Virus record (IMG/VR): IMGVR_UViG_3300017917_001112
Location: 64,001 to 128,000 of that record
Reading direction: 5' to 3' (one strand)
Source: a virus
Length of the DNA stretch: 64,000 nt
In this document: piece by piece, positions 23,846 to 60,015 of the stretch
Layout of the letters: each line of letters opens with the position of its first letter
How positions within the stretch are numbered: the first letter of the stretch is position 1
The notes under the pieces: generated by a model
What the model was told of the DNA's origin: nothing
Databases searched by the model: none
What the model saw: the letters and a program-made list of their open reading frames with translations, nothing else
Translations under genes and position numbers: made by a program

Positions 23846-23979
23846 CAGAGCAAGAGATTCTAAATTTCTATAAACAACTTGAAGAGTATTATGGTGATAA
23901 ATTGGCAAACTTCGAGCACTACCCACGCATATTTGCTCATCAAGTAAAATTATACAAATATTATAAAGGTATGTTATGA
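23842..23979 (+). CDS. Small hypothetical protein (45 aa, not in ORF track)
   Basis: MTEQEILNFYKQLEEYYGDKLANFEHYPRIFAHQVKLYKYYKGML; ATGA overlaps at both ends. Confidence 0.6.
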   Translation: MTEQEILNFYKQLEEYYGDKLANFEHYPRIFAHQVKLYKYYKGML

Positions 23980-33136: not shown

Positions 33137-34614
33137 TGCATGTTGTCCTGTTGAATGGTAGTCCAGATAAGGGTTTGATCTTCACAAGATATGTTGGTCC
33201 ATATAAGATCGCTCATTGGTTGCGTAAGAATGGATATGACTGTCAGGTTCTAGATTTCGTTACTCAGTTTACTGAGGATCAACTCTACAAGATGATAACT
33301 AAGTTTGTCAATAATGACACGCTGGTTCTTGCTCTGTCCACAACATTCATGTGTCTTGGTAAATTTGAACATAGCGATAGGGTGGTAAGAAGCATTCCTG
33401 AGAATGTGCTCAATGTTCTCAAAAAATTCAAGTCTGAATACCCACATGTAAAAATTGTAACTGGTGGATACAAGAGCGATCGATTGTCTGACTGGGGTGT
33501 TGTTGATGCGACTGTGATGTCCTATACTACAGCTTCTGAGGATATCCTGCTTGAGTATCTCAGATTCTTACAAGGCAAGAGCGAAGAACCAATGTATGTT
33601 CTTTATACCAGAGGTAAGTTTAGACGCATCTATAATGCTGCTAGAGAACCAAAGTATAATATTGAGCATGACGATTTTCGTTTTGTTCCTCAGGATTATA
33701 TCTTGCCAGGAGAAGCATTACCTTTGGATGTGTCTCGTGGATGTATTTTCGCTTGTCGTTTCTGTCAATATCCGCACTTGGGTAAGGGGAAGCTGGATTA
33801 CATTCGTGGTATGAATTATATCGAGGATGAGATGCGTTATAATCATGAGAACTTTGGCACCACTGGCTACATGATTCTTGATGACACATTTAATGACACT
33901 GAACATAAGATGAGTCAGTTTCTGAATATGTCTCAGCGACTTAACTTTAAGATTGACTACACCGCATATCTGCGAGCTGAGTTGATTCATCGTTTTCCTG
34001 ACACTGCACATATGCTCAAAGATTCAGGTTTGTTTGGTGCGTATCATGGTTTAGAAAGTTTACATCCGTATGCCAGCAAACTTGTTGGTAAGGGTTGGTC
34101 AGGCAAACACGCCAAAGAATATATCCCCAAGTTGTATCATGAAGTTTGGAATCGTGAGGTTACGATGCATACAAACTTTATTGTTGGTCTACCAAAAGAA
34201 ACAAAAGAAGATTTGATGGGGACTGTTAAGTGGCATCGCGATAACAAACTTCACACTTTATACTTCAGCGCATTGGGATTGTGGAATCCTGATGACAAGA
34301 CTCATGCTTACTCAATTCAATCAGAGTTTGATAAAAATTATTCCAAGTATGGATTTAATTTTGATGCTGATGGTTGGGTTAATGAAACATGGAAGCAACA
34401 AGAAGCCAATGAGTTTGCTGATCATCTAAACGAAATAACAAAGATAGACAAAAAATGTAGTGTGTGGTCTGCTCCGACTTTGTTGTGGTATGGTTACAGC
34501 AAGAAAAAGTTGACTGAATGGGTTGCTGGTGTCAACATGTATAACTGGATCCTTGACCGAACAGAGAAAAAGTACTTCGAATACCATGTCCGTGTAATGG
34601 AAGACTTGAAGTAG
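33136..34614 (+). CDS. Radical SAM enzyme with B12-binding-like N-terminal domain
   Basis: SRGCIFACRFC (CxxxCxxC), DDTFN, GLES, FIVGLPKET; N-terminal KIVTGG. Confidence 0.85.
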   Translation: MHVVLLNGSPDKGLIFTRYVGPYKIAHWLRKNGYDCQVLDFVTQFTEDQLYKMITKFVNNDTLVLALSTTFMCLGKFEHSDRVVRSIPENVLNVLKKFKSEYPHVKIVTGGYKSDRLSDWGVVDATVMSYTTASEDILLEYLRFLQGKSEEPMYVLYTRGKFRRIYNAAREPKYNIEHDDFRFVPQDYILPGEALPLDVSRGCIFACRFCQYPHLGKGKLDYIRGMNYIEDEMRYNHENFGTTGYMILDDTFNDTEHKMSQFLNMSQRLNFKIDYTAYLRAELIHRFPDTAHMLKDSGLFGAYHGLESLHPYASKLVGKGWSGKHAKEYIPKLYHEVWNREVTMHTNFIVGLPKETKEDLMGTVKWHRDNKLHTLYFSALGLWNPDDKTHAYSIQSEFDKNYSKYGFNFDADGWVNETWKQQEANEFADHLNEITKIDKKCSVWSAPTLLWYGYSKKKLTEWVAGVNMYNWILDRTEKKYFEYHVRVMEDLK

Positions 34615-37335: not shown

Positions 37336-38496
37336 ATGGAGAATGTGATGAATCAAGAAGTGTTTGAATCTAAATTGTTCGAGATGTTCCCCGATGTTAA
37401 ATCGTCAGGTACAGTTTCTCGTCAGCAAATTGTTTCCACCATGGAACAACTTGGCACCAACAAGTATCCCACATGGTTGATGGTAAATAAAGTTGGTCGT
37501 GGTCTTTATGCTATTGCTGGTGGCGCAAGTAATGCTGTTGCTAAACCTGCTGAAACTTTCGAGAATGATGTGCGAAAACTCAATTATGTAACTGAAGCAA
37601 CTGTTGCTGCTCCCCTCGTCGATCCGAACTATGTTGCTTGGGGTAATCACAGCGATGTCGATGCTATTCTAAAATCTAAACTGTTCCATCCGATCTATAT
37701 CACAGGTCCGACTGGTAATGGTAAGTCCACGATGGTCGAGCAGATTTGTGCTAAACATAAAATCCCTCTCATTCGTGTTAACTTGAACGCAACCGATGAC
37801 GAAGATAAACTGATTGCGTCTAAGACCCTTGTCGATGGCAATGTAGTTGTCGAAGATGGTCCAGTCGTTATCGCTATGCGTAAGGGTATTCCTATTCTGA
37901 TTGACGAAATTGATGCTGGTGGCGCAAACCTGCTCATGTGTCTTCAGGGTGTTCTAGAGGGCAAACCCCTATACATCAAAGCAAAGAACGAAATCGTGTA
38001 TCCTCAACAGGGGTTCAATGTTATTGCAACTGCCAACACCAAAGGTAAAGGCAGTGATGATGGTCGATACATTGGTACCAATGTGTTGAATGAAGCATTC
38101 CTAGAGCGTTTTGCTATCGTTTTTGAGCAAGAGTATCCTGGTGCCAAAGTCGAAGCGAAGATTGTTACTAATTTGATGAAGTCACTGAATTGTCTTGATG
38201 GCGAATTTACTTCAGTGTTAATCAAATGGGCAGATGCGATTCGTCGCACGTTCGAGGATGGTGGTGTTGACGAAACAATTACGACTCGTCGTTTGGTTCA
38301 CATCGTGAAGAACTTTGCGATCTATAAGGACAAGCGTAAATCTGTTCAGTTGGCTATCAATCGATTCGACAGCCACACCAAAGATGCATTCTTGGATTTG
38401 TTCGATAAAGTCGCAGCTGATCCGAATGTTGATTTGAACCCAGCACCGATCGAACAGCCTGTTGTGAAACAGCCTGATGAAGAAGTACCATTTTAA
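37336..38496 (+). CDS. MoxR/CobS-like AAA+ ATPase
   Basis: GPTGNGKS, LIDEID, ATANTKGKGSDDGRYIGTNVLNEAFLERF, TRRLVHI; SD-led start may be 37348. Confidence 0.9.
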   Translation: MENVMNQEVFESKLFEMFPDVKSSGTVSRQQIVSTMEQLGTNKYPTWLMVNKVGRGLYAIAGGASNAVAKPAETFENDVRKLNYVTEATVAAPLVDPNYVAWGNHSDVDAILKSKLFHPIYITGPTGNGKSTMVEQICAKHKIPLIRVNLNATDDEDKLIASKTLVDGNVVVEDGPVVIAMRKGIPILIDEIDAGGANLLMCLQGVLEGKPLYIKAKNEIVYPQQGFNVIATANTKGKGSDDGRYIGTNVLNEAFLERFAIVFEQEYPGAKVEAKIVTNLMKSLNCLDGEFTSVLIKWADAIRRTFEDGGVDETITTRRLVHIVKNFAIYKDKRKSVQLAINRFDSHTKDAFLDLFDKVAADPNVDLNPAPIEQPVVKQPDEEVPF

Positions 38497-40556: not shown

Positions 40557-40603
40557 GATTATACATATTAATGTACCCATTTGAATTGAAGGAGAACCAA
40601 CAA

Positions 40604-41263
40604 ATGAAACTATCTAAAGACACACAAAATTTACTTAAGAACTTTGCATCTATCAACTTGAATTTGCTTTTGCGTGAGGGAAACAAACTCTCAACTATGA
40701 GCGAAAACAAAACAATCATTTCTGAAGTTACTGTTGCTGAACAGTTTCCGCAGAATTTTGGAATCTATGATGTAAATGAATTTTTGGCTGTGTTGACATT
40801 GTTTAATGATCCCGATTTGGCATTCAGTAATGATGTTGTAACTGTCAAAGAAGGCAAGAATCAAATCGTTTACAAAGCAGCAGAAGAAAGCACTTTGAAA
40901 ACACCAAGTAAGTCTATTCAATTCCCAGAAGCAGAGATTAATTTCTCACTGTCTGCTGCGGATCTAGAACACATTATCAAATCAGCAGGTATTCTTAAAG
41001 TTTCTGACGTATCATTTATCGGCAGAGATGGTAAGTTAGTTGCTCTGGTCATCGATAAGAAAAATCCTCTAACAAATAAATTTGAAATTGATGTTGGCAC
41101 AACAGATAAAACATTCCAAGCAAACATGAAAATTGAGAATTTTAAGATGTTGCCTGGATCGTATAATGTATCCATCGCAAAAATGAAAATCTGTCGTTTC
41201 AAATCAACAACCAATGATTTAACATATTACGTAGCAGTAGAATCTGATTCAACAGCTGAGTAA
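40604..41263 (+). CDS. gp45: Sliding clamp gp45
   Basis: MKLSKDTQNLLKNFASIN, FGIYDVNEFL, YYVAVE. Confidence 0.95.
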   Translation: MKLSKDTQNLLKNFASINLNLLLREGNKLSTMSENKTIISEVTVAEQFPQNFGIYDVNEFLAVLTLFNDPDLAFSNDVVTVKEGKNQIVYKAAEESTLKTPSKSIQFPEAEINFSLSAADLEHIIKSAGILKVSDVSFIGRDGKLVALVIDKKNPLTNKFEIDVGTTDKTFQANMKIENFKMLPGSYNVSIAKMKICRFKSTTNDLTYYVAVESDSTAE

Positions 41264-41279: not shown

Positions 41280-42221
41280 ATGAGTCGTGATGAATTTTTA
41301 TGGTGCGAGAAGTATCGCCCAAAAACTATCGATGAATGTGTTCTTCCGCAACAACTGAAGGATACTTTTAAAGAATATATAAAGAACGGACAACTTCCAA
41401 ATTTTATTTTTTCTGGAAGCGCAGGTGTTGGTAAAACAACAGTTGCACGTGCATTGTGTAATGAACTTGGAGCAGATTATCTTTTTATCAACGGATCGGA
41501 AGAGAGAGGTATCGATGTATTACGAACAAAAATTAAAAGTTTTGCCTCGTCTGTTAGTCTCACAGAGGCAGGAGCAAAAGTCGTCATCCTTGATGAAGCC
41601 GACTATCTCACGCCAGACACACAAGCAGCCCTGCGTGCTTTTATCGAAGAGTTTTCCAACAACTGTAGATTCATCCTTACCTGCAACTTCAAAAACAGAA
41701 TCATCACTCCACTCCACAGTCGATGCTCAGTAGTTGAGTTTCGTATTGAGTCGGCTGAGAAACCTAAGATTGCTGCGAATTTCTTTCGCAGGATTGTAGA
41801 TATTCTCAACGCAGAGAGTGTTGAATCTGATAATAAAGTTGTAGCGAAAGTTGTTGAGACATTCTTTCCAGACTTCCGTAGAGTTCTAAACGAACTTCAG
41901 CGTTATTCTGTTGGTGGTCGTATCGACACAGGTATCTTAGCAAATCTTTCTGATGAATCCATGAAAGAATTACTCGGTTATCTAAAATCCAAAGATTTTA
42001 TGAAAGCAAGACTGTGGGTTGCAAAGAACAATGATATTGAGACATCTGTATTGTTCCGTAGACTTTATGACACAGCAGCAGATTTTCTTGAACAATCGTC
42101 TATTCCAGTTTTAATTTTAACTCTGGCAGATTATCAGTACAAGGCAGCATTTGTGGCTGATGTCGAGGTTAATAATGTTGCTGCGTTGATGGAGATTATT
42201 GCTAATTGTAAATTCAAGTGA
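41280..42221 (+). CDS. gp44: Clamp loader large subunit gp44
   Basis: WCEKYRP, GSAGVGKTT, ILDEAD, LHSRC. Confidence 0.96.
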   Translation: MSRDEFLWCEKYRPKTIDECVLPQQLKDTFKEYIKNGQLPNFIFSGSAGVGKTTVARALCNELGADYLFINGSEERGIDVLRTKIKSFASSVSLTEAGAKVVILDEADYLTPDTQAALRAFIEEFSNNCRFILTCNFKNRIITPLHSRCSVVEFRIESAEKPKIAANFFRRIVDILNAESVESDNKVVAKVVETFFPDFRRVLNELQRYSVGGRIDTGILANLSDESMKELLGYLKSKDFMKARLWVAKNNDIETSVLFRRLYDTAADFLEQSSIPVLILTLADYQYKAAFVADVEVNNVAALMEIIANCKFK

Positions 42222-42228
42222 GGTTTAT

Positions 42229-42612
42229 ATGACACCATTTGATTTTATTAATTCCATCAATCAAACAAAAGATGCTAACATAATTAAGGAACCACAGGCT
42301 GAGAAAGACTACAAAGCATTCATTATTAACAGGGGTCTAGCATACTTCCCAGACACTGTTTTACAAGCCAACGAAATGAATCGTCGTCCATGGACTCCAA
42401 GGGACTGGCAATTTTCGTTTTTGCTAAATAGTATTACCAAGAAAAAACGATTCAGTAAATGGGCTGAAAAACTGCCCAAGAACGAAGACTTGGACTTGGT
42501 TATGCAATACTATGATTATAGTAAACAAAAAGCAATGGCTGTTCTGAACTTATTGACACCAGAGCAGTTGGCTATGATAAAACAAAAATTCGAAAAAGGT
42601 GGAAGACTATGA
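42229..42612 (+). CDS. gp62: Clamp loader small subunit gp62
   Basis: PFDFINSIN, FIINRGLAYFPD, KKRFSKW; synteny. Confidence 0.92.
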   Translation: MTPFDFINSINQTKDANIIKEPQAEKDYKAFIINRGLAYFPDTVLQANEMNRRPWTPRDWQFSFLLNSITKKKRFSKWAEKLPKNEDLDLVMQYYDYSKQKAMAVLNLLTPEQLAMIKQKFEKGGRL

Positions 42613-47832: not shown

Positions 47833-50340
47833 ATGGAATTTTACACAAATGTTTTTCCCATGGGCAACAAGTTATGCGTCCGTGGGTACAGCAATGGTTT
47901 GCCGTACAAAGATAAGATAGATTTTCGCCCAACCCTTTACGTCTCGTCACCAAAGAAACATTATAGTGGCGAGATTTTTCGCACATTAGATGGTCAAGTT
48001 CTTTACGAAATCCAACCTGGATCTATCAAAGACACACGTGAATTTATTGATCGATATAAGGGTGTTGAAAGTTTCCCTGTTTATGGTAACACAAATTACG
48101 CATACCAATATATCTCGGACACATATCGCTCAGAAATTAAATTTGATAAAGATTTAATTAAGTGTTTCTCCATTGATATCGAAACAGCAACAGAAAGTGG
48201 TTTCCCTGATATTGAAACTGCTAATGAAGAGGTATTGTTAATTACATTAATGGACAATAAGACAAAAGAGATTCATACTTTTGGTCGTAGTCCTTACACA
48301 GGAAACAAGGAAGTTATTTTCCATCATGTTGAAAATGAAAAACAACTTCTCGTTGAGTTTCTAACATTCTGGAAAGATAATTGTCCAGACATCGTTACTG
48401 GTTGGAATATTGGTTTCTTTGATATTCCATATCTAGTTAGACGCATCATGGTTTTGCTTGGCGAGTCACATGCAAAACAACTATCACCATGGGGTATTAT
48501 CAACGAACGTCGTATTCATGTTAAAGGTAATGAAGAGATTACGTACGACATTGCTGGTGTTTCTGCACTTGATTATATTGATTTATACAAAAAGTTTACT
48601 TACTCAATGCAAGAATCTTATCGTCTTGATCACATTGCATTTGTTGAACTTGGCGAAAACAAACTAGACTATTCTGAGTATGATTCATTTAAAGATTTTT
48701 ATACTCATGGTTGGAAGAAGTTTGTTGATTACAACATTCACGATACTGTTCTTGTTGACAAACTTGAAGACAAGATGAAATTGATTGAGTTGGCTATCGT
48801 TATGGCATATAACGCAAAGGTAAATTTCGATGATGTGTTTTCACAGGTAAGAATGTGGGATACGATTATCTACAATCACTTGCGTTCCAAAAACATTGTT
48901 ATCCCAAACAAAACTAACAATGAGAAAGACAATGTTATTGAAGGTGCTTATGTTAAAGACCCACTTACTGGATTTCACAAGTGGGTTGTCTCATTTGACT
49001 TGAACAGTCTTTATCCGCATTTAATTATGCAGTATAACATTTCACCAGAGACTTTAATCCAAGATTACAAACATATTGGTGGTGTTGGGTATTTCTTAGA
49101 ACATGAGGAGCAAGGTGGATTTAAAGATCTAGATTATGCTTGTACAGCGAATGGTTATTGCTATCGCAAAGACATCAAAGGATTTCTGCCTGAACTGATG
49201 GAAAAAATGTATGCTGACCGAAGTAAAGCAAAGAAACAAATGCTTGCGATTCAACAGCAGTATGAGAACACCAAGGACGCATCGCTAAAGAATGAGATTT
49301 CAAGATTGAACAATTTGCAGATGGCTTTGAAGATTGCTTTGAACTCTGCTTATGGTGCGTTGGCTAATCAATATTTCCGTTATTATGATAAACGCATGTC
49401 TGAGGGAATTACGACTTCTGGTCAGTTGTCTATTCGTTGGATCGCAAATAAATTTAACGAATATTTTAACAAAGTAATGGGAACTGAGAAAGAAGATTAT
49501 GTGATTGCTGTTGACACAGATTCTGTCTATCTTAGATTTGGACCATTGGTTGATTCTTTGTTTAGTCAGGAAGAACAGAAAGACAAAGATAAGATTGTTA
49601 AGTTTATTGACAAAATCTGTGAGGATAAAATACAGAAGTACATTGATAAGTGTTATTCTGAATTGGCAAAGCGTCAAAATGCTTATGATCAGAAAATGAT
49701 TATGAAGCGTGAAGTTATCGCAGACATGGGAATTTGGACTGCTAAAAAACGCTATGTTCTCAATGTGCATAACTCTGAAGGTGTGCAATATGCGCAACCC
49801 AAGATGAAGATTATGGGTCTTGAGATGGTTAAGTCTTCAACACCAATTGTTGTTCGCGACAAGTTGAAGGAAGCATTGAAGATTGTGATTGCTGGCGATC
49901 AACTAGAACTGCGTAAGTTTATCACTGATTATCGTAAACATTTCTATTCGTTGCCTGTTGAAGAAGTTGCTTTCCCAAGAAGTGTGAACAATCTTAAGGA
50001 ATATTATGACTCTACTACCATTTATCGTAAATCGACACCGATTCATGTCCGTGGTGCTTTGATGTTTAATCATATTATCAAAGAAAGAAATCTTACGAAC
50101 AAATATCAGCCAATTAAAGAGGGTGACAGAATTAAATTTATCTATCTTCGTGAGCCGAACACTATTCGTGAAGATGTAATTACATTCGCAAATGAATTAC
50201 CAAAAGAGTTTGACCTACATAAATACATAGATTATGAGAAGCAGTTTGAGAAAGTTTTCCTTGACCCATTAACCGCAATTATGGATTCTATCGGATGGAC
50301 AGTTGAAGAAAAGAACACTCTTGAAGATTTCTTCGCATAA
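47833..50340 (+). CDS. gp43: Family B DNA polymerase gp43
   Basis: DIET exonuclease motif, SFDLNSLYP, KIALNSAYG, VDTDS; C-terminal TLEDFFA. Confidence 0.98.
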   Translation: MEFYTNVFPMGNKLCVRGYSNGLPYKDKIDFRPTLYVSSPKKHYSGEIFRTLDGQVLYEIQPGSIKDTREFIDRYKGVESFPVYGNTNYAYQYISDTYRSEIKFDKDLIKCFSIDIETATESGFPDIETANEEVLLITLMDNKTKEIHTFGRSPYTGNKEVIFHHVENEKQLLVEFLTFWKDNCPDIVTGWNIGFFDIPYLVRRIMVLLGESHAKQLSPWGIINERRIHVKGNEEITYDIAGVSALDYIDLYKKFTYSMQESYRLDHIAFVELGENKLDYSEYDSFKDFYTHGWKKFVDYNIHDTVLVDKLEDKMKLIELAIVMAYNAKVNFDDVFSQVRMWDTIIYNHLRSKNIVIPNKTNNEKDNVIEGAYVKDPLTGFHKWVVSFDLNSLYPHLIMQYNISPETLIQDYKHIGGVGYFLEHEEQGGFKDLDYACTANGYCYRKDIKGFLPELMEKMYADRSKAKKQMLAIQQQYENTKDASLKNEISRLNNLQMALKIALNSAYGALANQYFRYYDKRMSEGITTSGQLSIRWIANKFNEYFNKVMGTEKEDYVIAVDTDSVYLRFGPLVDSLFSQEEQKDKDKIVKFIDKICEDKIQKYIDKCYSELAKRQNAYDQKMIMKREVIADMGIWTAKKRYVLNVHNSEGVQYAQPKMKIMGLEMVKSSTPIVVRDKLKEALKIVIAGDQLELRKFITDYRKHFYSLPVEEVAFPRSVNNLKEYYDSTTIYRKSTPIHVRGALMFNHIIKERNLTNKYQPIKEGDRIKFIYLREPNTIREDVITFANELPKEFDLHKYIDYEKQFEKVFLDPLTAIMDSIGWTVEEKNTLEDFFA

Positions 50341-50398: not shown

Positions 50399-50644
50399 AT
50401 GACACAAGAAAATGAATTTCCGTCAATCGAAGACGTAGAAATTAAAACAACATCATTGAACAACTTGCCCCCAAAAGTAATTTGTGAAAAACATGGAGAA
50501 CTTAATGACGCATATGTGTTTAGAGTAAACATGCCAGAGTTTGGATATGAAAAAAAAACATATTGTTTAGTATGCGCAATCGAGTATCTTTCTATGATTG
50601 CTAATGAGGTTACATTCGAAGAACGTGAGGGAGAAACAAAATGA
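50399..50644 (+). CDS. Small Zn-binding hypothetical protein
   Basis: CEKHG...YCLVC. Confidence 0.55.
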   Translation: MTQENEFPSIEDVEIKTTSLNNLPPKVICEKHGELNDAYVFRVNMPEFGYEKKTYCLVCAIEYLSMIANEVTFEEREGETK

Positions 50645-51699
50645 GTTTTCTAAAAGATATTGTAAAGGAGCTTGATAATGAATATGCGGGACTGGCTGAT
50701 GATGGTGTTGTTGGTGATACATCTAATTTTATCGACACTGGTTCTTATACCCTTAATGCTTTGCTCTCTGGTAGCATCTTTGGTGGTCTACCTGGGAACA
50801 AAGTTACAGCTTTGGCTGGTGAGTCTTCCACAGGAAAGACATTCTATGCTCTTGGGATTGCGAACAATTTTCTTCGAACTGACGACAAGGCTGGAGTCAT
50901 TTACTTTGAAACAGAAGGAGCGTTGACTAAAGATATGCTCGCTGAGCGTGGCATTGATACTAAACGATTTATGATTGTTCCTGTGTCAACTGTTCAAGAA
51001 TTTAGAACTCAAGCATCTAAGATTCTAGATGCGTATGAAAAAACATCAAAGAAAGATCGCCCACCATTGATGTTGTTTTTAGATTCTCTTGGTATGCTCT
51101 CTACTTCTAAAGAAATGGAAGATACACTTGAGGGTAAAGATACTCGTGATATGACTCGTGCTCAATTGATTCGTGGCGCATTCCGTGTTCTTTCATTGCG
51201 TCTTGCTAAACTCGATGTCGCTATGGTTGTTACGAATCACACATATGCAGTTGTTGGTGCTTATATGCCAACCAAAACTATGGGTGGTGGTGACGGATTA
51301 AAGTATGCTGCTTCAACGATTGTTTTTCTTTCTAAGTCTCAGGACAAAGATGGAACTGAAGTTGTTGGTAATATCATTAAATGTAAACTTGAGAAATCTC
51401 GTTTTACACGTGAGAAGTCTATGGTTGAAACTAAACTTTCCTTTACTAAAGGATTAGATCGTTATCATGGTCTAGCAGATTTGGCTGTTGAAGCAGGAAT
51501 CTGGAAATCGCAAGGTGGACGAATTGAAGTACATGATGGTAGAAAAGTTTTCGGTAAAAACATTGCAAACAATCCTTCTGACTTCTTCACCGAAGACATC
51601 CTAAAGCAACTTGACATTTACTGTAAATCAAAGTATAATTATGGTTCAGATGATGTTGTTCAACAAGAAGAAGTAGAGGAAGAATTTAATGAGAATTGA
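50641..51699 (+). CDS. uvsX: RecA-like recombinase UvsX
   Basis: AGESSTGKT, DSLGMLST.KE, DMTRAQ, MGGG.GLKYAAS. Confidence 0.95.
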   Translation: MSFLKDIVKELDNEYAGLADDGVVGDTSNFIDTGSYTLNALLSGSIFGGLPGNKVTALAGESSTGKTFYALGIANNFLRTDDKAGVIYFETEGALTKDMLAERGIDTKRFMIVPVSTVQEFRTQASKILDAYEKTSKKDRPPLMLFLDSLGMLSTSKEMEDTLEGKDTRDMTRAQLIRGAFRVLSLRLAKLDVAMVVTNHTYAVVGAYMPTKTMGGGDGLKYAASTIVFLSKSQDKDGTEVVGNIIKCKLEKSRFTREKSMVETKLSFTKGLDRYHGLADLAVEAGIWKSQGGRIEVHDGRKVFGKNIANNPSDFFTEDILKQLDIYCKSKYNYGSDDVVQQEEVEEEFNEN

Positions 51700-53071
51700 A
51701 AATCAAATTTTTACTAATTTGATAACTCAGGAAGCGTATGCAAGAAAGGTTATTCCTTTTTTACTTCCTGAGTATTTCATGGATCGTAGCGATCGTGTGA
51801 TTTATGAGGAATATAACAAATTCTTTTCGCAGTACAACACAACTCCAACTGTTGATGTGCTGAAGATTGAGATTAGCAACAGAAAAGATATTTCTGAAGA
51901 AGAAGTAAAAAAAGTTAACGAAACACTTGATACTCTTAGCGATGAACAAACTAATATTGATTGGATAACAGACAGCACAGAGAAATTTTGTAAAGACAAG
52001 GCAGTTTACAATGCTATCATCAACTCTATCAAAATTATTGAGGGCAGGGATAAAAATCACAACCAAGATGCGATACCTTCTCTACTTTCTAAAGCATTGG
52101 CTGTTACTTTTGATTCTCACGTGGGTCATGACTATTTGGAAGACAGTGATGCTCGCTATGATTTTTATCATAGGGTTGAAGAGAAAATTCCTTTCGATAT
52201 TGACTTGCTCAACAAAATCACGAACGGAGGACTCTCAAAGAAAACTCTAAACATTATTCTTGCAGGAACAGGTGTTGGTAAATCTTTGGCTATGTGTCAT
52301 TTCGCAGCATCATCTTTGCTTCAGGGTAAAAATGTGTTATACATAACTATGGAGATGGCTGAGGAGAGAATCGCAGAGCGTATTGATGCCAATTTGCTAG
52401 AGTTGACTATGGATTCTTTAAAGATGGTTGAGAAACGTGTTTTCGATGCTAGACTTGAAAAGATTCGCAATAAAACACATGGTAAGTTGATTGTTAAAGA
52501 ATATCCTACTGCTTCTGCCCACGCAGGACACTTCCGTGCTTTAATTGAAGAACTGCGTATGAAGCGTGATTTTACACCTGATATTATTTTTATTGATTAT
52601 CTTAATATCTGTTCTTCTCAGCGTCTTCGTATGGGAGCAAATGTAAACTCTTATACATATATTAAAGCGATTGCTGAAGAGTTGAGAGGATTGGCAGGTG
52701 AATATAAAGTGCCTTTGGTGAGCGCAACGCAAACTACTCGTTCTGGTTATGCTAACACAGATCCAGGACTTGAAGATACTTCAGAGTCATTTGGTCTGCC
52801 AGCAACAGCAGATTTGATGATTGCGTTGATTGCCACTGAAGAACTTGATCAAATGAATCAGATTATGGTTAAACAATTGAAAAATCGTTATTCTGATCCA
52901 AACTTCTATAAGCGTTTTGTTGTTGGCGTTGATAGAAAACAAATGAGATTATACAATGTTGAAATGAGTGCTCAACTACATATAGAGGGACAGGGAACTG
53001 TTTCTGATGATACGCCACTATTTGACGCAACGAAATTTGGCAAACGCATTAAGAGTGAAGCATTCGAATAA
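51689..53071 (+). CDS. gp41: Replicative helicase gp41
   Basis: LAGTGVGKS, IDYLNIC, AIAEELRGLA, SESFGLPATAD, KQLKNRY. Confidence 0.96.
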   Translation: MRIENQIFTNLITQEAYARKVIPFLLPEYFMDRSDRVIYEEYNKFFSQYNTTPTVDVLKIEISNRKDISEEEVKKVNETLDTLSDEQTNIDWITDSTEKFCKDKAVYNAIINSIKIIEGRDKNHNQDAIPSLLSKALAVTFDSHVGHDYLEDSDARYDFYHRVEEKIPFDIDLLNKITNGGLSKKTLNIILAGTGVGKSLAMCHFAASSLLQGKNVLYITMEMAEERIAERIDANLLELTMDSLKMVEKRVFDARLEKIRNKTHGKLIVKEYPTASAHAGHFRALIEELRMKRDFTPDIIFIDYLNICSSQRLRMGANVNSYTYIKAIAEELRGLAGEYKVPLVSATQTTRSGYANTDPGLEDTSESFGLPATADLMIALIATEELDQMNQIMVKQLKNRYSDPNFYKRFVVGVDRKQMRLYNVEMSAQLHIEGQGTVSDDTPLFDATKFGKRIKSEAFE

Positions 53072-53081
53072 GGAGAAAAAA

Positions 53082-54443
53082 ATGGTTCAGGTTATTGTAG
53101 CAGACAAACTTTATGATTCAGAACATCTACTTGGTATGTTCGTTGACGAATCGCATTATGATATTCTTATTGAAGAAGATACGGATTGTTATCTCCCAGC
53201 TGATTGCGATATCGCAACACAAGCGAATTGTGATAAAGATTGTTCTGCTTGTGATATTGGAGCCGATGAGCGTAGAATAGCATTTAAGTTTAGAAAGAAC
53301 TTCTTCTCAAAAGAAGAACAAGAACAAGCATATGTTGGTTTGCGTGAAGCAGCAGTTCGTACAGAAAATCGTGGATTGGCTTCAGGAATTAAAGCAGGAA
53401 CATCAGTAACAGGCGAAGGACGTGAGTGGGTTACTAATTATCAAGAAGAAATGATTAATGGAATTCTATCCTCAAGAACTGCTCAGTTGGTTGATGGGGA
53501 TATTATTTTAGAAATTCGAGAAAAATATCCAACACCAGAATCACGTTTGAAAGCATTGGGTTCTGGTAAGAACAATGTTTGGGTTATCTCACGTTTCCGT
53601 GGTAAATTTAATTTTGATGAATGGGTTGATTCAATCATTCCTTTAGATCGCGAAGCAAGAGCAAAAGCAACTGAAGAAGTTATGACAATGATTAGCGAAA
53701 CTTCTTATGGCAATCCAGTTGACTCAGGTATCGCAGGTTGGTTTGACAGATATCCACGTATTCCTTATGGTAGAGCAACAACATATACAAGAGATAATCC
53801 AGAAAAATTTGCTATGGCGTACCCATTTCTACAACATTTGGCAAAAGGATTTAAGGAGTTACTACCACAAAGATATGCTGCGCAAAAAGCAGCAACAGAT
53901 AAAATTGATCCAAGATTCGTAATTCCTGAGACACCATTTACTACTGTAACTGTTAACAAAACATTTAGAACTGCAGCGCATCGCGATGCTGGTGACTTTT
54001 CTGATGGTCTATCTAATTTGCTTACACTTTCTAATGATGGTAGATATACTGGTGGTTATTTGATTTTTCCAGAGATTCGTATAGCAGTTAATGTACGACC
54101 AGGAGATTTGCTTCTTGTGAATAACCATGAGGTAATTCATGGAAACACACCGATTGTTTGTGAAGAAGGTTCTGAGCGTGTTTCGCTGGTTGTTTATCTT
54201 CGTGAAAACATGTTAGAACTTGGTTCTTATGAATATGAAAATTCAAGATTCGAATTTGTTGAGTCACGCAGATTGAACAAAGAACATCCACTTTGGAAAA
54301 AATTGTGGAATGGTGTTTCTCCAGGAATGTGGGAAGAACAAGAATGGTACGACTTTTTAAAATCACGTCCGAATGGCGAACAAATGCTTGCGAAGTATCA
54401 CCCGAAAGCACTTGAAGCATCTCTAGATGAATTCTTTGCTTGA
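53082..54443 (+). CDS. TET/JBP-family 2OG-Fe(II) nucleobase dioxygenase
   Basis: FTTVTVN..RTAAHRDAGD (HxD), IHGNTPI (H), RVSLVVY (Rx5-aromatic); SD-led start at 53082; tail SLDEFFA. Confidence 0.8.
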   Translation: MVQVIVADKLYDSEHLLGMFVDESHYDILIEEDTDCYLPADCDIATQANCDKDCSACDIGADERRIAFKFRKNFFSKEEQEQAYVGLREAAVRTENRGLASGIKAGTSVTGEGREWVTNYQEEMINGILSSRTAQLVDGDIILEIREKYPTPESRLKALGSGKNNVWVISRFRGKFNFDEWVDSIIPLDREARAKATEEVMTMISETSYGNPVDSGIAGWFDRYPRIPYGRATTYTRDNPEKFAMAYPFLQHLAKGFKELLPQRYAAQKAATDKIDPRFVIPETPFTTVTVNKTFRTAAHRDAGDFSDGLSNLLTLSNDGRYTGGYLIFPEIRIAVNVRPGDLLLVNNHEVIHGNTPIVCEEGSERVSLVVYLRENMLELGSYEYENSRFEFVESRRLNKEHPLWKKLWNGVSPGMWEEQEWYDFLKSRPNGEQMLAKYHPKALEASLDEFFA

Positions 54444-54468
54444 CATTAATCTATATACATAGTAAAAT
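54440..54468 (+). promoter_or_regulatory. sigma70 promoter
   Basis: TTGACA-N17-TAAAAT overlapping the upstream stop codon. Confidence 0.65.
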
Positions 54469-54487
54469 ATAGTTTTGGAGATTTAAT

Positions 54488-55321
54488 ATGGCATGGCAAT
54501 CAAGTTATTGGTCTTGTTCTAAATTTGCTGATTGGCTTCGTGGAACACCGAAGCCAGAAGCAGAAACAAGTAAAGGATGGCGTCTTTGGAGAGAAGCATC
54601 TGAGAAAGAACATCCATTTCGTTTTTGGTTGGCGGAAGAAGGACTTGATCACATTCAGGACTTCGTAACTTATCCAAGCAGAAAAGTAAACGATTTAATG
54701 TATTATTTGAATAATCGGTTTGTTACTAAAACGCATGCACTAACATCTCACCCTCGTGATATTCCTCGTGGCGAATGGCGAGATGTTGGTAATCGTTTTC
54801 TCCCCTGCCTGTTCAATGAACTTGTTGATTTTGTCGAGGTCGAACAAGCATGGCATCACTGTATGTGGGATGACAAAGCACGAAAAGAATTTAAAGTGCC
54901 TTGGACACGCAGGGGTTTTTTACGTCTTAGAACTTGGCGTTGTCCAGAAGCAGGGTTGTCTTATCTGAATTGGGCAAAGGATTTGACTAATGCTGAGTTT
55001 CTTGATGAAGATAAGAAACATGAAGCAGAGTTGACACATCAAGCACTTGCTGCTCGCGAGATTCTAGAACTCTATCACTGGTGGAAAGAAGTTTATTCAA
55101 AACGTCTAGATCCATACGATTCTAGTGGTTGGTCTGCTATTTGCGAGAGAGAACGCAAAGAAGGACGTGACTTACTTGACATGGAAGACAGAAACGAAAC
55201 AGAGCGTGAAGAGAGAAATAATTCTCTAGATCTTCTACGTAAAATAGAAGAAGAATACGAAAAGGAAGACGAAGAAATGATGATTCGTCTTATCAAAATC
55301 CGTCAATCACTGTGGACTTAA
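54488..55321 (+). CDS. Trp-rich hypothetical protein
   Basis: 277 aa; ELYHWW, IKIRQSLWT; no function recognised. Confidence 0.7.
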   Translation: MAWQSSYWSCSKFADWLRGTPKPEAETSKGWRLWREASEKEHPFRFWLAEEGLDHIQDFVTYPSRKVNDLMYYLNNRFVTKTHALTSHPRDIPRGEWRDVGNRFLPCLFNELVDFVEVEQAWHHCMWDDKARKEFKVPWTRRGFLRLRTWRCPEAGLSYLNWAKDLTNAEFLDEDKKHEAELTHQALAAREILELYHWWKEVYSKRLDPYDSSGWSAICERERKEGRDLLDMEDRNETEREERNNSLDLLRKIEEEYEKEDEEMMIRLIKIRQSLWT

Positions 55322-55325
55322 ACAT

Positions 55326-56669
55326 ATGAAAATCTTAATGGTAATGCATACCTTCAATAACTTTGGAGGAATTATCAATCACTGCGAACATTTAATGGCA
55401 GGATTAAAAGAAATTGGTCACGAAGTAAATTTCGCATATCTTAAAGGCAACTCTACTGTAAGACCAGTTGAAATTCCTTCTAAACTTGCCGAAGGTTATG
55501 AGATTGGTATTGGTTCAGGTTATCCAGTGCACCAAGGTGATGGATGGATTGCGCCATACTATTCTTACAAAGTAAAAGAATCTGTTGACAAATTTGTTAA
55601 GACTGCCAATGAGCATGATATTGTGATTTGGCAGTCTATTTTTGGATTTAAAAACAAAGACACTGAGAAATACAAGGGTTGGTTGCCAATGGTTGAACAA
55701 GTCAAGGCAAAACAAGTTGTAATTATTCACGATGCTAATCTTAAAAAATTATATCCATGGATTTCTCTTTATGAAAAACATTTCGCTGGTCTTGCTTGCG
55801 TTCATCCTGCAGCATACGATTCAGCAGACTTTATGTCCACACCTCGAGCGTTAATTTTGAACCCTCAGGATATTGATGGCGTACCACCTACTCCAGAGTT
55901 TGCTGGTCGCGAAAACAAAATCTTGTCAATACAGACATTCAAACGCTGGAAGCGTGTGGACGACCTTATTCGTGCTGTTCCTTACATGAAAAATGTCAAG
56001 ACATTGGTAGGTGGTTATGGTATTGAGGCAGCATATATGATGTCGAAAGACAAGTGTAAAGACGAATACTTCGCAACAACACAATATGATCCAGACGTAA
56101 CACCTGACCGAGAAGGAAAGCGTATTTGGGAAAACGCTGAAAACTCAGGAAATTTTGAATATCTCGGTTTTATTTCTGGAGCGAAACGTGATGAGATTCT
56201 ACAAACATCTAAGTTTTTGGTTGACCCTTCTTGGAGCAATACTTTTGGTGAGCACTTCAATCGTGTTGTCGTGGATGCAATGCGGATTGGGACTGTGCCC
56301 ATTGCTGTAAATTTTGGTGTTTCCAACAACGAAGAAGGTAATGGAGTTTTGTTGAAGGCTGGTGAACACTATTGTATGCTCCGCAAGGATTTTACTCCAA
56401 AACAATATGGAGAAGCAATCGCTAACTTCTGTAATATGAGCGAATCCGACTACAAACGTATTCAGCTAAATAACTACGAACTAATCAAAAAGTTTGATCG
56501 AAAGGTAGTTGCTCAGCACTATATCGACTTGGCTATGGGTAAGGAAACAGGTTATCTAAACGAACTCAGAACCAAGACGAACCATGATCCATCTATTGTC
56601 CGAAATTCCATTAAAATGTTCGAAGAACACTTCGAACAGGCATCAGACTTGGACGAATTCTTCGCATAA
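55326..56669 (+). CDS. GT-B glycosyltransferase (probable DNA glycosyltransferase)
   Basis: MKILMV...GGIINH, KRVDDLIRA, EHFNRVVVDAMRIGTVPI; tail DLDEFFA. Confidence 0.8.
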   Translation: MKILMVMHTFNNFGGIINHCEHLMAGLKEIGHEVNFAYLKGNSTVRPVEIPSKLAEGYEIGIGSGYPVHQGDGWIAPYYSYKVKESVDKFVKTANEHDIVIWQSIFGFKNKDTEKYKGWLPMVEQVKAKQVVIIHDANLKKLYPWISLYEKHFAGLACVHPAAYDSADFMSTPRALILNPQDIDGVPPTPEFAGRENKILSIQTFKRWKRVDDLIRAVPYMKNVKTLVGGYGIEAAYMMSKDKCKDEYFATTQYDPDVTPDREGKRIWENAENSGNFEYLGFISGAKRDEILQTSKFLVDPSWSNTFGEHFNRVVVDAMRIGTVPIAVNFGVSNNEEGNGVLLKAGEHYCMLRKDFTPKQYGEAIANFCNMSESDYKRIQLNNYELIKKFDRKVVAQHYIDLAMGKETGYLNELRTKTNHDPSIVRNSIKMFEEHFEQASDLDEFFA

Positions 56670-56674
56670 ATGTC

Positions 56675-56703
56675 TTGACATCGAACACCTTTTAGGGTAT
56701 AAT
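56675..56703 (+). promoter_or_regulatory. sigma70 promoter
   Basis: TTGACA-N17-TATAAT. Confidence 0.8.
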
Positions 56704-56723: not shown

Positions 56724-57395
56724 ATGAATAAAGGTAAATTTTTAGCAAATTACCATGGGGATTTTGTAGATATTCTCAAGGTAGATTTACCAAGACTTGT
56801 TCCCAGTGTGTTGTGGGACAAACTAGACACATATCGAAATGACCCAGTGGGCATGAAGCGTTATTTGGCTAGACACCACAAGACTGTCCTCTATACAGAA
56901 AGATCCAAAAACAAAGAGTTTTATGTCTCTGGCGAGTTCGCCATGGACGAAGAGAAGATGCAACTGTTCACAGTTCGACCAAGATACTTTTCTGATAAGG
57001 CATGGGATGATTTCAAGTTTGAGGTAATTATTACATTGATGCATGAATATGTGCATTTCATGCAGTGGTTGTGTCATGAAGACAAATATGAGTGGATTTT
57101 AATTCACAAAGAACACTCTGATAAAAAACTACAAGAAGAGCGTGATTATTATGCAGCATGGGGAGAGATACAAGCGTATGCTCATTGCATTTTAATCGAA
57201 ATGAAAACCAGAAACATCAATAAACCAGCAGCCAAGATGTTGATGGCAAAAAGAGTTGGCTATTATTCACCAACACTGAAAACCATCAGAAAACAGTTCG
57301 ATGGATTTGATATACCAATTCGTTATCTCTACAGAGAAGTTTTGCGTTGGGAGAAGCGTTACGAACGCCATGCCGAGCACCTAAATATATCATAA
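56724..57395 (+). CDS. HExxH zincin-like protein
   Basis: MHEYVHFMQ with downstream EIQAYA. Confidence 0.65.
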   Translation: MNKGKFLANYHGDFVDILKVDLPRLVPSVLWDKLDTYRNDPVGMKRYLARHHKTVLYTERSKNKEFYVSGEFAMDEEKMQLFTVRPRYFSDKAWDDFKFEVIITLMHEYVHFMQWLCHEDKYEWILIHKEHSDKKLQEERDYYAAWGEIQAYAHCILIEMKTRNINKPAAKMLMAKRVGYYSPTLKTIRKQFDGFDIPIRYLYREVLRWEKRYERHAEHLNIS

Positions 57396-57411: not shown

Positions 57412-58806
57412 ATGGCAAAAAAATATTTCCAAGGCGAAAGTGGATTCAAAATACTTGCTGGCACAAATACCAAACTAAAATCACTTTTCGCCAAATTAAA
57501 AGATTACAAGTTGCTTCTGTTTTTAGAAACAGAGGACGGGAAGACCTCAGGTATCCCAAGAATGAAACTTGTTTCTGAAGACATTAAAGTTTTCCAAGCC
57601 ATCTTCAAAATCCTTTCATCAGACAAGGCTCTACAGTCTACACTAGAAAAAGCAAACAATCAAGCATTGTTTGTCTCTGGTAATCAAAAGTTTAGATTGT
57701 ATAAGTCAGGTGGTCGCTTGACTAATGTTATCGACAACGATGGCAACATGATCGGGAACAAAGTTCCTTCTACAGCACAACAAGAAGATGCGGTAAGATA
57801 TATTTTAGAAGTTGGCTCAAAAGGAATGCCTTCTAAAGAATCAATCAATAAAGCAGCAGGATTTGAATTTGGTAAAGATTGGCACGATTCGTTTGTGAAA
57901 ACATACGCAGCTGTTATTACTGTAATAACAAAAGCATCGTTGGCTCAGTATAATTTTTATCGTGACTCAAATCCAAAGAAAATTGCCTTTCTTAATCAAA
58001 TGACTGACGAGAAGTATTTACCAGATAGTAAAGATAACTGGAATCCAGCAGACGTGTGGGCAGTTAAAAAGTCTGCCGAAGGCAAACTTGGAATGGATGT
58101 TGGTAAGATATACAATAAATTAAAAGAAGGTAAGGCAGGAATTGAAGATCTAAATGGCTTTGTTCAAAAGTCATTTGATAACAAAGATTTGATTGGTATT
58201 TCTCTTAAGAAAGTTGCTGGTCCAAAAGCAAAGATTATTAAAGTTCAAGTTGATAGCAACATGGAGAAAAGCATTAAGTTCTCTGGTGTGTCATCAAAAT
58301 TTGTATATAATGTTGAAAATTCTTACTTTGATGCTTTGTTAAAATTTAAAGCATACAAAGATGATGTTTTATATCGTTTCCGTTTCCGTCCTCGTGCTGC
58401 ATCTGGTCAATTAAAAACTTATGGAGAAGGACAACCACAGGATGCTAAAGTTTGGGATGGTGCTATCTCTTCAGATTTAATCAATAAACTATTTCCAAAA
58501 ATCCAAGGTTGGACTAAATTCTGTGAATCTGAATTAAAACCAATGGACACAGTATATAATACATTGATCGGACAAACAAAAGATAAAGATTTTGCGAACT
58601 ATATTAAGAAAGGTTCGTATTCTTTAGTGACAGTTAATGGTATAAAAGATAAACAAGCAGATCCACAAAAAATACGCAGAGCATGTGTTCTGTTATATTA
58701 CATTTGGCATTTAGAAACAACAAATCAAGTTACTTCGTTTCCTCAAATGTATATGGCTGCTAAAAAGATGAATGCGTTTTCATCTGTGCACTATAAGGTA
58801 AGTTAA
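57412..58806 (+). CDS. Putative PD-(D/E)xK-like nuclease
   Basis: TAQQE, WNPADVW, IGISLKK. Confidence 0.5.
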   Translation: MAKKYFQGESGFKILAGTNTKLKSLFAKLKDYKLLLFLETEDGKTSGIPRMKLVSEDIKVFQAIFKILSSDKALQSTLEKANNQALFVSGNQKFRLYKSGGRLTNVIDNDGNMIGNKVPSTAQQEDAVRYILEVGSKGMPSKESINKAAGFEFGKDWHDSFVKTYAAVITVITKASLAQYNFYRDSNPKKIAFLNQMTDEKYLPDSKDNWNPADVWAVKKSAEGKLGMDVGKIYNKLKEGKAGIEDLNGFVQKSFDNKDLIGISLKKVAGPKAKIIKVQVDSNMEKSIKFSGVSSKFVYNVENSYFDALLKFKAYKDDVLYRFRFRPRAASGQLKTYGEGQPQDAKVWDGAISSDLINKLFPKIQGWTKFCESELKPMDTVYNTLIGQTKDKDFANYIKKGSYSLVTVNGIKDKQADPQKIRRACVLLYYIWHLETTNQVTSFPQMYMAAKKMNAFSSVHYKVS

Positions 58807-60015
58807 ATGTTTAATTTAAAAGGTTACATTGCGGAAGCAGCTAATGATACAACAAGATTAAAACACTTGTCGCATTTAGAAGATCTCATTTTTGAAGAAG
58901 GTAAACAAGGTTTACAATTTGCTATTGATAGTATTCAAATATATGTAAACGCATTATACAACAAATCTTCTGGCGCAACAATCACAACCAAATGGGATGG
59001 TTCTCCATCAATCATCGTTCATCAATCGGGAAATGATTATTGGGTCGCATCAAAATCAGCATTTAACGCAACCCCAAAACTAAACAGAACTGATTCTGAT
59101 ATTGAAGCAAATCACGGACACTCTGCTGGTTTGGTTGAGAAATTAAAATATGCACTGAAATATTGTAAAGATCTTGGTATTAATGGAACTTTGCAGGGAG
59201 ATTTCTTATATACTGATGGTGATTTAAAACCACAAACAATTGATGGAGTAAAACATGTTACTTTCAAACCCAATACTATTACTTATGCTGTCGCTGTGGA
59301 TAGCGACTTGGGGCGAAGAATCCTCGCTTCTAAGATGGGTATTATTTTTCACACTTATTATACTGGCAATGACTTTACCACTATGAAAGCAAATTTTGGT
59401 TACTCAGTTGAGAAACTAAAAAAGTCAAGAAATGTTTTTGTTGATGATGCTATTCTAAAAGATAAAACAAAAGATCTAACTCTAACACAAGCAGAACAAG
59501 AAACGATATTGAATGCGCATGCTGAATTGAAGAAATTGAACATGGCTATACCAACATCGTTTTTGTCTTGGTTGTCTACACATAAAATCGTATCTGCATT
59601 GATTGCAAAATATAACAATGCTAATGTGCGTGCTGGTAGTTACGTTGGTTCATCAAAGGCGCATGGTGTTTCGCAATTTATTCACGATGAGTTACAAAAA
59701 GAAATTGATAAAGTAAAGACAACAACAACTAAAACAAAAAAAGAAAACGAAAGACAACAGATTTTAGATTTCGTTGATTCACATAAAATGGTTCTAGAGA
59801 AAGTATATGAAGCATTCTCTCTAGTTGTTGCTTGTAAAATGATTATTGTTTCGAAATTAAATAGACTCGAGACTGGCGTATCTGGATTTGTGGAGAAAGG
59901 TAACGCATTGGTGCCAACAGCACCAGAAGGTTTCGTTGCGGTTCAAGGAGATCGTGTTGTTAAGTTGGTTGATCGACTTGAGTTTTCAAGAAATAACTTT
60001 TTGAGGCAGAGATGA
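58807..60015 (+). CDS. Ligase-like nucleotidyltransferase (DUF6267-type)
   Basis: HLSHLED, TKWDG, LQGDFLY, PEGFV, VKLVDRLEFS. Confidence 0.65.
   Translation: MFNLKGYIAEAANDTTRLKHLSHLEDLIFEEGKQGLQFAIDSIQIYVNALYNKSSGATITTKWDGSPSIIVHQSGNDYWVASKSAFNATPKLNRTDSDIEANHGHSAGLVEKLKYALKYCKDLGINGTLQGDFLYTDGDLKPQTIDGVKHVTFKPNTITYAVAVDSDLGRRILASKMGIIFHTYYTGNDFTTMKANFGYSVEKLKKSRNVFVDDAILKDKTKDLTLTQAEQETILNAHAELKKLNMAIPTSFLSWLSTHKIVSALIAKYNNANVRAGSYVGSSKAHGVSQFIHDELQKEIDKVKTTTTKTKKENERQQILDFVDSHKMVLEKVYEAFSLVVACKMIIVSKLNRLETGVSGFVEKGNALVPTAPEGFVAVQGDRVVKLVDRLEFSRNNFLRQR

Follow-up and report, generated by a model that had tools for sequence, protein, structure and literature searches.

The presence of genes for a DNA base oxygenase and a glycosyltransferase behind the helicase gene of a T4-like phage raises the question of which base these enzymes modify and how they reach it. 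The genes lie in a stretch of 64,000 nucleotides (hereafter the window), which represents bases 64001-128000 of the IMG/VR virus record IMGVR_UViG_3300017917_001112. This record is 165,256 bp long, has direct terminal repeats, is rated 100% complete and has a GC content of 36.9%, and the source genome is that of a T4-like phage from a lake. The first gene (53082-54443, plus strand) encodes a TET/JBP-family Fe(II)/2-oxoglutarate dioxygenase (5mYOX) of 453 residues, termed TET here. It is followed by a gene for a Trp-rich protein of 277 residues (54488-55321, plus strand) and by a gene for a GT-B glycosyltransferase of 447 residues (55326-56669, plus strand), termed GT here. The original prediction was that TET and GT may perform base-J-like chemistry, in which the substrate could be either thymine or 5-methylcytosine (5mC) made by a gene outside the window. 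The results described below make it likely that this cassette, placed in the phage's replication module, hypermodifies thymine after replication.

The oxygenase is a true TET/JBP member. Both the profile hidden Markov model and the fold place it inside this family, to which the original prediction had assigned it. PF12851 (Tet_JBP) matches residues 233-375 with E 1.4e-23 (83.4 bits, compared with a gathering cut-off of 34.9), and phrog_24024 matches the protein end to end with E 1e-146. The HxD...H...Rx5Y signature, which had been noticed before, is formed by H300-R-D302, H353 and R366-x5-Y372; these residues are invariant across 31 aligned homologues, and the HRD sequence is aligned with H1382-R-D1384 of TET2. 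When the AlphaFold2 model built on the 31 homologues (pLDDT 77) is compared with known structures by Foldseek, ranks 1-26 are all occupied by TET/JBP structures (CcTet, human TET2, NgTET1 and CMD1). VIA-align gives Z 17.1-19.1 to TET/JBP structures, with 223-310 residues aligned, and 12-14 to AlkB, ALKBH3 and FTO. A sequence-only search of the PDB gives weak matches only (E 0.005-0.05). The open reading frame (ORF) of TET spans 53007-54443, and its start is placed at the ATG at 53082, as originally given, because the homologues all begin with MV(K/Q)VIVA. Because model residues 1-397 span the core, the extra length of the protein is accounted for mainly by an internal insertion and a C-terminal extension of ~55 residues, with no separate N-terminal domain.

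The Cys-rich insert mentioned in the original prediction is present in TET as CYLPADCDIATQANCDKDCSAC at residues 36-57 (C36-C57; 53187-53252, plus strand), but it is dispensable. In the alignment of the 31 homologues it is a variable insert, which is present in about half of them and missing in those of loci L007, L013, L017 and L052. A homologue as close as 94% identity (that of L007) and about half of the family do without this loop, so that it is not essential. The confidence of the model is low over residues 41-60, in the region of this loop. Equivalence of the insert to the Cys-rich domain of TET enzymes was considered and rejected, because the insert is a short loop that varies by indels. 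D305 occupies the base-contacting position three residues past the Asp residue of HxD and is the same residue as D234 of NgTET1. Reading the specificity for thymine or 5mC from D305 was also rejected, because NgTET1, which is a 5mC enzyme, has Asp at this position too.

The gene content of the phage points to thymine as the substrate of TET. In a profile search, the complete genome has no PF00145 (C5-methyltransferase), PF00303 (ThyA/gp42-type) or PF01555 (N4/N6 methyltransferase) protein, and it encodes ThyX. Thymine is the only 5-methylpyrimidine that the phage itself supplies, because the C5-methyltransferase, PF00303 and PF01555 proteins are missing and ThyX is present. This search was suggested in the original prediction, in which neither a C5-methyltransferase in the window nor gp42 between gp43 and uvsX had been found. 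Both observations hold: PF00145 is missing across the whole 165,256-bp record, and the sole ORF between gp43 and uvsX (50399-50644) encodes 81 residues. Of the two substrates proposed at that time, 5mC made by a gene outside the window becomes improbable, because no PF00145 gene is present elsewhere in the complete genome, and thymine becomes likely, because neither a C5-methyltransferase nor a hydroxymethylase is found in the whole genome. Nor is PF00145 found in the genomes of four relatives with completeness ratings of 90% or more, or in those of phages DLP6, Cr30 and C48C1.

The neighbourhoods of the TET orthologues speak more strongly for thymine. Full-length relatives of TET are present in 127 viral contigs, of which 80, with 55-94% identity, were kept. 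After dereplication, 38 loci that extend 3 kb or more beyond TET were used to count downstream modules. The module is a glycosyltransferase of the window type at 14 of these loci. At 19 loci it contains an amino-acid:DNA transferase (AADT, PF18724), accompanied at almost all of them by a class-II GATase, together with GNAT, an amidoligase or an unknown protein of 290-300 residues. The orthologues encoded beside GATase and AADT genes, about half of all, are 55-74% identical to TET. GATase with the 290-300-residue unknown protein, with no AADT seen, is present at one locus, TAGT (PF20691) at two, and another module or none recognised at the remaining two. The modules swapped in 3' of orthologous TETs include GATase with GNAT and AADT, GATase with TAGT and amidoligase, GATase with the 290-300-residue unknown protein, and TAGT alone (example loci L054:9320-11674, L044:9380-11781, L068:9295-10846 and L058:6547-7335). 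The AADT and GATase genes are known from thymidine hypermodification (PMC13229309, PMC8989533). In a maximum-likelihood tree, in which four rows are labelled by GATase alone with contigs ending early, the TETs linked to a glycosyltransferase and those linked to AADT are interleaved, and well-supported branches force at least three changes of the glycosyltransferase label. The nine-member clade of the window TET is sister (100/99 support) to the AADT-linked TETs of L034 and L038. The simplest reading is that one conserved oxidase feeds interchangeable modules, all of which would need 5-hydroxymethyluracil (5hmU). Because the orthologues are linked to thymidine-hypermodification genes and are interleaved with those linked to a glycosyltransferase, conversion of thymine to 5hmU and then to glycosyl-5hmU is the best reading of the locus, and TET is probably a thymine hydroxylase that acts on DNA.

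Conversion of this type has been described for other phages. A TET_JBP protein encoded without a C5-methyltransferase beside thymidine-hypermodification genes is predicted to make 5hmU (Lee et al. 2021, PMC8989533), TET89 oxidises thymine (Burke et al. 2021, PMC8256090), and clade C1 and C2 enzymes convert thymine to 5hmU in vivo as well as in vitro (O'Toole et al. 2026, PMC13229309). Glycosyltransferases are the commonest neighbours at 5mYOX loci, and a C5-methyltransferase is present at only 6% of them (PMC13229309). The premise of the original prediction that characterised phage TETs act on 5mC is outdated, because phage thymine dioxygenases, often encoded beside glycosyltransferases and lacking a C5-methyltransferase, have been published (PMC8256090, PMC8989533, PMC13229309).

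It is very improbable that TET instead oxidises 5mC, produced by a host Dcm-like or a divergent phage methyltransferase, and that GT glycosylates the resulting 5-hydroxymethylcytosine (5hmC). The T4-like Melnitz phages have gp43, an HhaI-type C5-methyltransferase and TET in this order, which would suit such a route, but the TET of these phages is just 28% identical to that of the window. Likewise, 5mC is the substrate of the characterised clade A and B phage TETs and of every TET with a solved structure, and D305 matches D234 of NgTET1, whereas no PF00145 protein is encoded in eight complete or near-complete genomes with the TET of this type and no N4/N6 methyltransferase is found either. In addition, 5mC oxidation does not account for the linkage of the orthologues to AADT and GATase thymidine-hypermodification genes, and methylation by the host would give sparse modified sites only. 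In Methylophilales phage Melnitz-3 itself (L186:1344-3528), the 5mC route is probable, and TET ends in the clamp-like sequence NLNDFLGE. In phage C48C1 (L003:6938-10385, OQ984149.1), the TET homologue is followed by an unknown protein of 344 residues and a UDP-galactopyranose mutase (PF03275, E 6e-52), and this gene set hints at a galactofuranose-bearing DNA base.

If thymine is oxidised to 5hmU by TET, GT is the candidate for the second step. GT was recognised in the original prediction as a GT-B enzyme encoded two genes downstream of TET, and this assignment is supported by both the profile and the fold. PF00534 (Glycos_transf_1) matches with E 8e-10 (38.9 bits, compared with a cut-off of 26.4), and the model (pLDDT 83) has the GT-B fold. 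In the Foldseek search, its closest structures are the retaining GT4 enzymes PimA, BshA, MshA and HepE (E 1e-13 to 1e-11). T4 alpha-glucosyltransferase (1y6f) is among the fold matches with E 1e-9 and the highest TMq (0.59), and is otherwise no better than the other GT-B enzymes. E309-x7-D317 is invariant and represents an EX7E-type motif with Asp as the second acid. GT is probably a retaining, GT4-like enzyme; its nearest structures are those of retaining GT4 enzymes, from which a retaining mechanism and therefore an alpha linkage are predicted. At the sequence level, GT matches phrog_2888 'alpha-glucosyltransferase' weakly (E 0.0033), and it has only weak matches in the PDB and no relative in 50,697 deposited phage genomes (E 1e-5).

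GT is a probable DNA 5hmU glycosyltransferase. The assignment of DNA as its acceptor rests on its C-terminal tail, on its neighbourhood and on its fold match to T4 alpha-glucosyltransferase. Alternatively, TET makes 5hmU, but GT acts on a protein, a lipid or a cell-wall precursor, so that 5hmU or a further oxidised form is the end product. In favour of this alternative, the GT4 enzymes that head the fold matches, such as PimA, BshA and MshA, act on lipids or small molecules, GT matches none of the Pfam DNA glycosyltransferase families PF11440, PF09198 and PF20691, and the cultured relatives DLP6 and Cr30 have TET without this glycosyltransferase. It is nevertheless improbable, because the glycosyltransferase gene directly abuts the TET gene in many relatives (L052, L066 and L078) and fills the slot that is held by the TAGT or AADT modules at other orthologous loci. 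Furthermore, T4 alpha-glucosyltransferase, whose TMq is the highest among the fold matches, is a gp45-binding DNA glycosyltransferase, and all 15 GT homologues carry a clamp-type tail of the kind found in gp43 and TET.

This tail, which was not mentioned in the original prediction, is shared by the oxygenase, the glycosyltransferase and the replicative polymerase. The family-B polymerase gp43 (47833-50340, plus strand) ends in TLEDFFA, the LEDFFA portion of which (50320-50337, plus strand) is the reference clamp-binding peptide (PMC2988020). TET ends in SLDEFFA (LDEFFA at 54423-54440, plus strand) and GT in DLDEFFA (LDEFFA at 56649-56666, plus strand), and by their likeness to the gp43 tail these are a putative gp45-binding and a putative clamp-binding peptide. 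When 208 ORFs are searched for a strict L[DE][DE]FFA ending, exactly three, those of gp43, TET and GT, have it. A baseplate-hub protein ending in GIDSFF might have been a fourth bearer of the tail, but this ending was judged to be coincidental. The late sigma factor gp55 (19814-20374, plus strand; phrog_234, E 1e-61), a clamp client of a second known type, has the same motif as NLESFLG five residues from its C-terminus (20336-20356, plus strand; PMC2988020). The tails of TET, GT and gp43 differ at synonymous DNA positions and have nothing in common upstream, so that the tail peptide is kept by selection and does not reflect recent copying.

The tail is conserved in the relatives as well. Apart from two exceptions (Cr30 and L035/L036), the TET homologues at the 80 loci have a tail of the form S/T-L-D/E-x-F/L/M-F, which all 15 GT homologues have as well. 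The tails of TET and GT in the relatives resemble the gp43 tail of the same phage: both enzymes of L052 end in STLDDMFG, and the TET and gp43 tails are ATLGDFFV and ATLDSFFA in DLP6, and ISLEEFFV and ATLEDFFG in C48C1. A loosened pattern matches 151 of the 1,085 ORFs at these 80 loci, and 149 of the 151 encode TET, gp43, GT, AADT, TAGT or GNAT. The AADT, GNAT and TAGT proteins of the relatives end in tails of the L-E-x-F-[FLW] type. The TETs of the non-T4-like phages HTVC112P, P12024L and S-CBWM1 do not have the tail. The pLDDT is low ahead of the tails of TET and GT, and below 50 for residues 439-447 of GT, which is consistent with a flexible tail.

The presumed docking partner of these tails is the sliding clamp gp45 (40571-41263, plus strand), which is identified by PF09116 (E 5e-10), PF02916, PF21328 and PF16790 and is followed by the clamp-loader genes of gp44 and gp62 (41280-42612). 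In T4, gp43, gp55 and gp33 each bind gp45 through a C-terminal peptide, and these motifs can be exchanged for one another (PMC2988020). T4 alpha-glucosyltransferase binds gp45 (Sommer et al. 2004, confirmed in PMC13216743). Because of these two precedents, we infer, on good grounds, that TET and GT dock on gp45. A literature search found no paper, within the library that it covered, that links a 5mYOX to the replication sliding clamp. The tail may instead be a degradation, localisation or oligomerisation tag, with the enzymes reaching DNA by diffusion, but this is rather doubtful. In its favour, the AADT tails (GLEALW) fit the motif loosely, and the share of T4 alpha-glucosyltransferase in glucosylation is mostly explained by promoter strength and not by gp45 binding (PMC13216743). 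Against it, the same peptide ends gp43 and sits at the C-terminus of gp55, the two classic gp45 clients, is confined to six DNA-acting families in the 80 loci, and is missing from the TETs of phages outside the T4-like group.

According to the reading that we prefer, the phage would replicate with ordinary dNTPs, with its own dTMP supplied via ThyX and with no hydroxymethylase. TET would then convert thymine in polymer DNA to 5hmU by hydroxylating its 5-methyl group, using Fe(II) bound by H300, D302 and H353, and 2-oxoglutarate bound by R366. GT would move a sugar from a nucleotide sugar onto the hydroxyl group of 5hmU to give a base-J-like O-glycosyl-5hmU, which is probably alpha-linked. Both enzymes, which bear the acidic and hydrophobic C-terminal peptide of the gp43/gp55 type, would probably be recruited by gp45 and act on fresh duplex behind the fork, and the modified DNA would presumably resist host nucleases. 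For this scheme the families, folds and catalytic residues of both enzymes, the gene inventory, the conserved tails and the genes linked to the orthologues are observed, and we infer the substrate (thymine), the product, the sugar and its anomer, the clamp binding and the biological role. Several points weigh against it. The assignment of the substrate and product rests on gene content and orthology, and the sequence cannot separate thymine from 5mC, because D305 is shared with NgTET1, which acts on 5mC. TET, with its 453 residues and large insert, is considerably longer than the characterised thymine dioxygenases of ~290-300 residues, and some clade C1 enzymes that lack ParB are inactive in E. 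coli (PMC13229309). GT4-like enzymes act mostly on lipids, small molecules or glycans.

The inactivity of these clade C1 enzymes may be related to the clamp. ParB (PF02195) is not found in the genome of the phage, nor above the cut-off in five related genomes. The best short-form relative of TET is gp18 of Pelagibacter phage HTVC112P, which is 43% identical over the core and is encoded beside a ParB-like gene. This arrangement hints, as a hypothesis, that docking on gp45 may replace ParB in T4-like phages. It is possible, and is proposed here tentatively, that in T4-like phages this 5mYOX subclass and the downstream transferases work in partnership with gp45, in place of the ParB-like CTPase clamp of the ParB-dependent thymine dioxygenases, and that the C-terminal extension docks the oxidase on the DNA-encircling ring, so that oxidation of thymine and subsequent glycosylation or amino-acid transfer would be processive and fork-coupled. 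If this is true, the partnership with gp45 would explain why ParB-less clade C1 enzymes are inactive when they are expressed alone in E. coli. In HTVC112P (L183:1569-3791), three consecutive genes encode a ParB-like protein, a 302-residue TET (wrongly annotated as DnaJ/SNF2) and an FkbM methyltransferase. This phage represents the published ParB and 5mYOX arrangement in a cultured pelagiphage, and its TET has no clamp tail.

The phage thymine dioxygenases of clades C1 and C2 (5mYOX89/TET89, 5mYOX97 and 5mYOX176; PMC13229309, PMC8256090) are among the closest known systems. These enzymes have the same TET/JBP fold and catalytic residues as TET, a variable core insertion and a C-terminal extension, and they are likewise encoded without a C5-methyltransferase. 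Their neighbours are a glycosyltransferase (clade C2) or GATase, AADT and kinase genes (clade C1), and those of TET are GT in the window, and GATase and AADT at the orthologous loci. TET differs from these enzymes in its length (453 residues compared with ~290-300), in an extension that ends in a gp43-type clamp peptide and in the location of its gene in a T4-like replication operon. Unlike the phages of the ParB-dependent subclass, the source phage has no ParB. In the TET_JBP clusters of metaviromes (Lee et al. 2021, PMC8989533), 5hmU for the modification genes is supplied by TET_JBP in place of dUMP hydroxymethylase, and the orthologues of TET are likewise encoded beside AADT (aGPT-Pplase), GATase and amidoligase genes. 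In contrast, the source phage has one GT4-like glycosyltransferase as its whole downstream module; no AADT is encoded in the stretch 3' of TET (kinases were not searched for), and the expected product is an O-glycoside rather than an amino-acid or amine adduct.

The base J pathway of kinetoplastids (JBP1/JBP2 and JGT) has the same two-step logic on polymer DNA, in which thymine is converted to 5hmU by a TET/JBP enzyme and then O-glycosylated. The base-J-like chemistry of the original prediction is likely to stand as far as the outcome, glycosylated 5hmU, is concerned, but the enzymes differ. TET has no J-binding or SNF2 domain, because Pfam finds Tet_JBP alone, and JGT is GT-A-like and groups with GT-A phage enzymes (bioRxiv 10.1101/2023.12.21.572611), whereas GT is a GT-B, GT4-like enzyme. 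For this reason an alpha linkage is likelier than the beta-glucose of base J. The likeness to base J lies in the outcome and not in ancestry, nor probably in the anomeric linkage. The cultured-phage homologues of TET, DLP6 AAY80_030 (L001), Cr30 AGS81014.1 (L002) and S-CBWM1 gp8, are labelled 'SNF2 DNA repair protein', which is a mis-annotation, because their 42-48%-identical counterpart in the window shows the Tet_JBP domain only.

T4 alpha-glucosyltransferase is likewise a GT-B DNA glycosyltransferase of a T4-type phage, and it binds the clamp (Sommer et al. 2004, cited in PMC13216743). Unlike GT, it falls outside PF00534 and acts on 5hmC that is incorporated before replication. In the present locus the acceptor would be made after replication by a dioxygenase with the same tail, and the tail explicitly reproduces the motif of the polymerase. 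The GT-B DNA glycosyltransferases of viruses that are encoded next to 5mYOX (bioRxiv 10.1101/2023.12.21.572611) resemble GT in that they are GT-B enzymes associated with 5mYOX and have MshA and PglH as structural neighbours. According to the authors of this preprint, most contigs with 5mYOX and a glycosyltransferase have no methyltransferase and probably make 5hmU. However, the enzymes tested by them act on 5hmC, and clamp tails are not described for them.

The Trp-rich gene between TET and GT was proposed in the original prediction as a third component of the pathway, but it is a backbone or passenger gene and not a specific pathway component. At 76 of 79 viral loci with a relative of this gene, neither TET nor a glycosyltransferase is present within 6 kb; at L165 the gene lies directly after gp41 with no TET, and seven of the 14 GT-linked loci do not have it. 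Elsewhere it adjoins Trp-halogenase-like, radical-SAM, cytidylyltransferase and Bax-inhibitor genes. The family has 5,439 metagenomic relatives, all of which are viral and highly conserved (~60-68% identical among the best 120), and its members end in ...IRxSLWT. The protein has no relative in 50,697 deposited phage genomes (E 1e-5), no match in Pfam, PHROG or NCBIfam, weak matches at most in a sequence-only search of the PDB, and only unnamed viral clusters in the ESM Atlas. In the source phage it probably shares a promoter with GT.

The gene order in the window agrees with that originally described, in which the cassette directly follows gp41. Downstream of gp43 and the 81-residue ORF, UvsX (RecA) is encoded at 50641-51699 and gp41, a DnaB_C helicase, at 51689-53071. 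Three sequences on the plus strand are predicted sigma-70 promoters by their match to the consensus. One (12/12) lies inside the end of uvsX, upstream of gp41 and TET (51611-51639), one (11/12) in the gap before the Trp-rich gene and GT (54440-54468), and one (12/12) in the gap before the gene at 56724-57395 (56675-56703). They suggest early transcription by the host polymerase, in units shared with replication genes. There is no enrichment of the T4 late-promoter motif TATAAATA, and no copy lies near the locus.

Three more genes lie 3' of GT, at 56724-57395, 57412-58806 and 58807-60015. The 223-residue product of the first contains HEYVH (an HExxH motif) and matches no family; this gene is present 3' of the glycosyltransferase in many related loci. 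The third encodes a DUF6267 protein (E 1e-87) with KWDG, which resembles motif I (KxDG) of ligase-type nucleotidyltransferases. Two other genes for 2-oxoglutarate-Fe(II) oxygenases, at 23976-24599 of the window (phrog_81, E 8e-42) and at G000:C1:22278-22871 on the minus strand (phrog_61, E 2e-11), are both unrelated to TET/JBP. Upstream of the clamp genes, a 492-residue radical SAM protein and a CbbQ/MoxR-like AAA_5 ATPase are encoded (33136-34614 and 37336-38496).

A base-J-like route from thymine is already known in phages; it was predicted by Lee 2021 and shown by TET89 (Burke 2021) and by O'Toole 2025/2026. Because the chemistry from thymine through 5hmU to a decorated base is established, the locus adds a member and not a new principle. 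It identifies a uniform, large subfamily of TET/JBP enzymes of 430-470 residues in T4-like phages, of which the cultured members DLP6, Cr30 and C48C1 are mis-annotated as 'SNF2 DNA repair protein'. The interest of the locus lies mainly in the clamp-tail hypothesis, and in its testability via these cultured, mis-annotated relatives. A lack of the phage clamp and its loader may be the reason why some ParB-less phage 5mYOXs are inactive in heterologous assays. A polymerase-type tail is conserved on the oxidase as well as on downstream transferases of four kinds, which suggests that a whole hypermodification pathway rides the replication clamp, in parallel with DNMT1 and PCNA in eukaryotes and with T4 alpha-glucosyltransferase and gp45.

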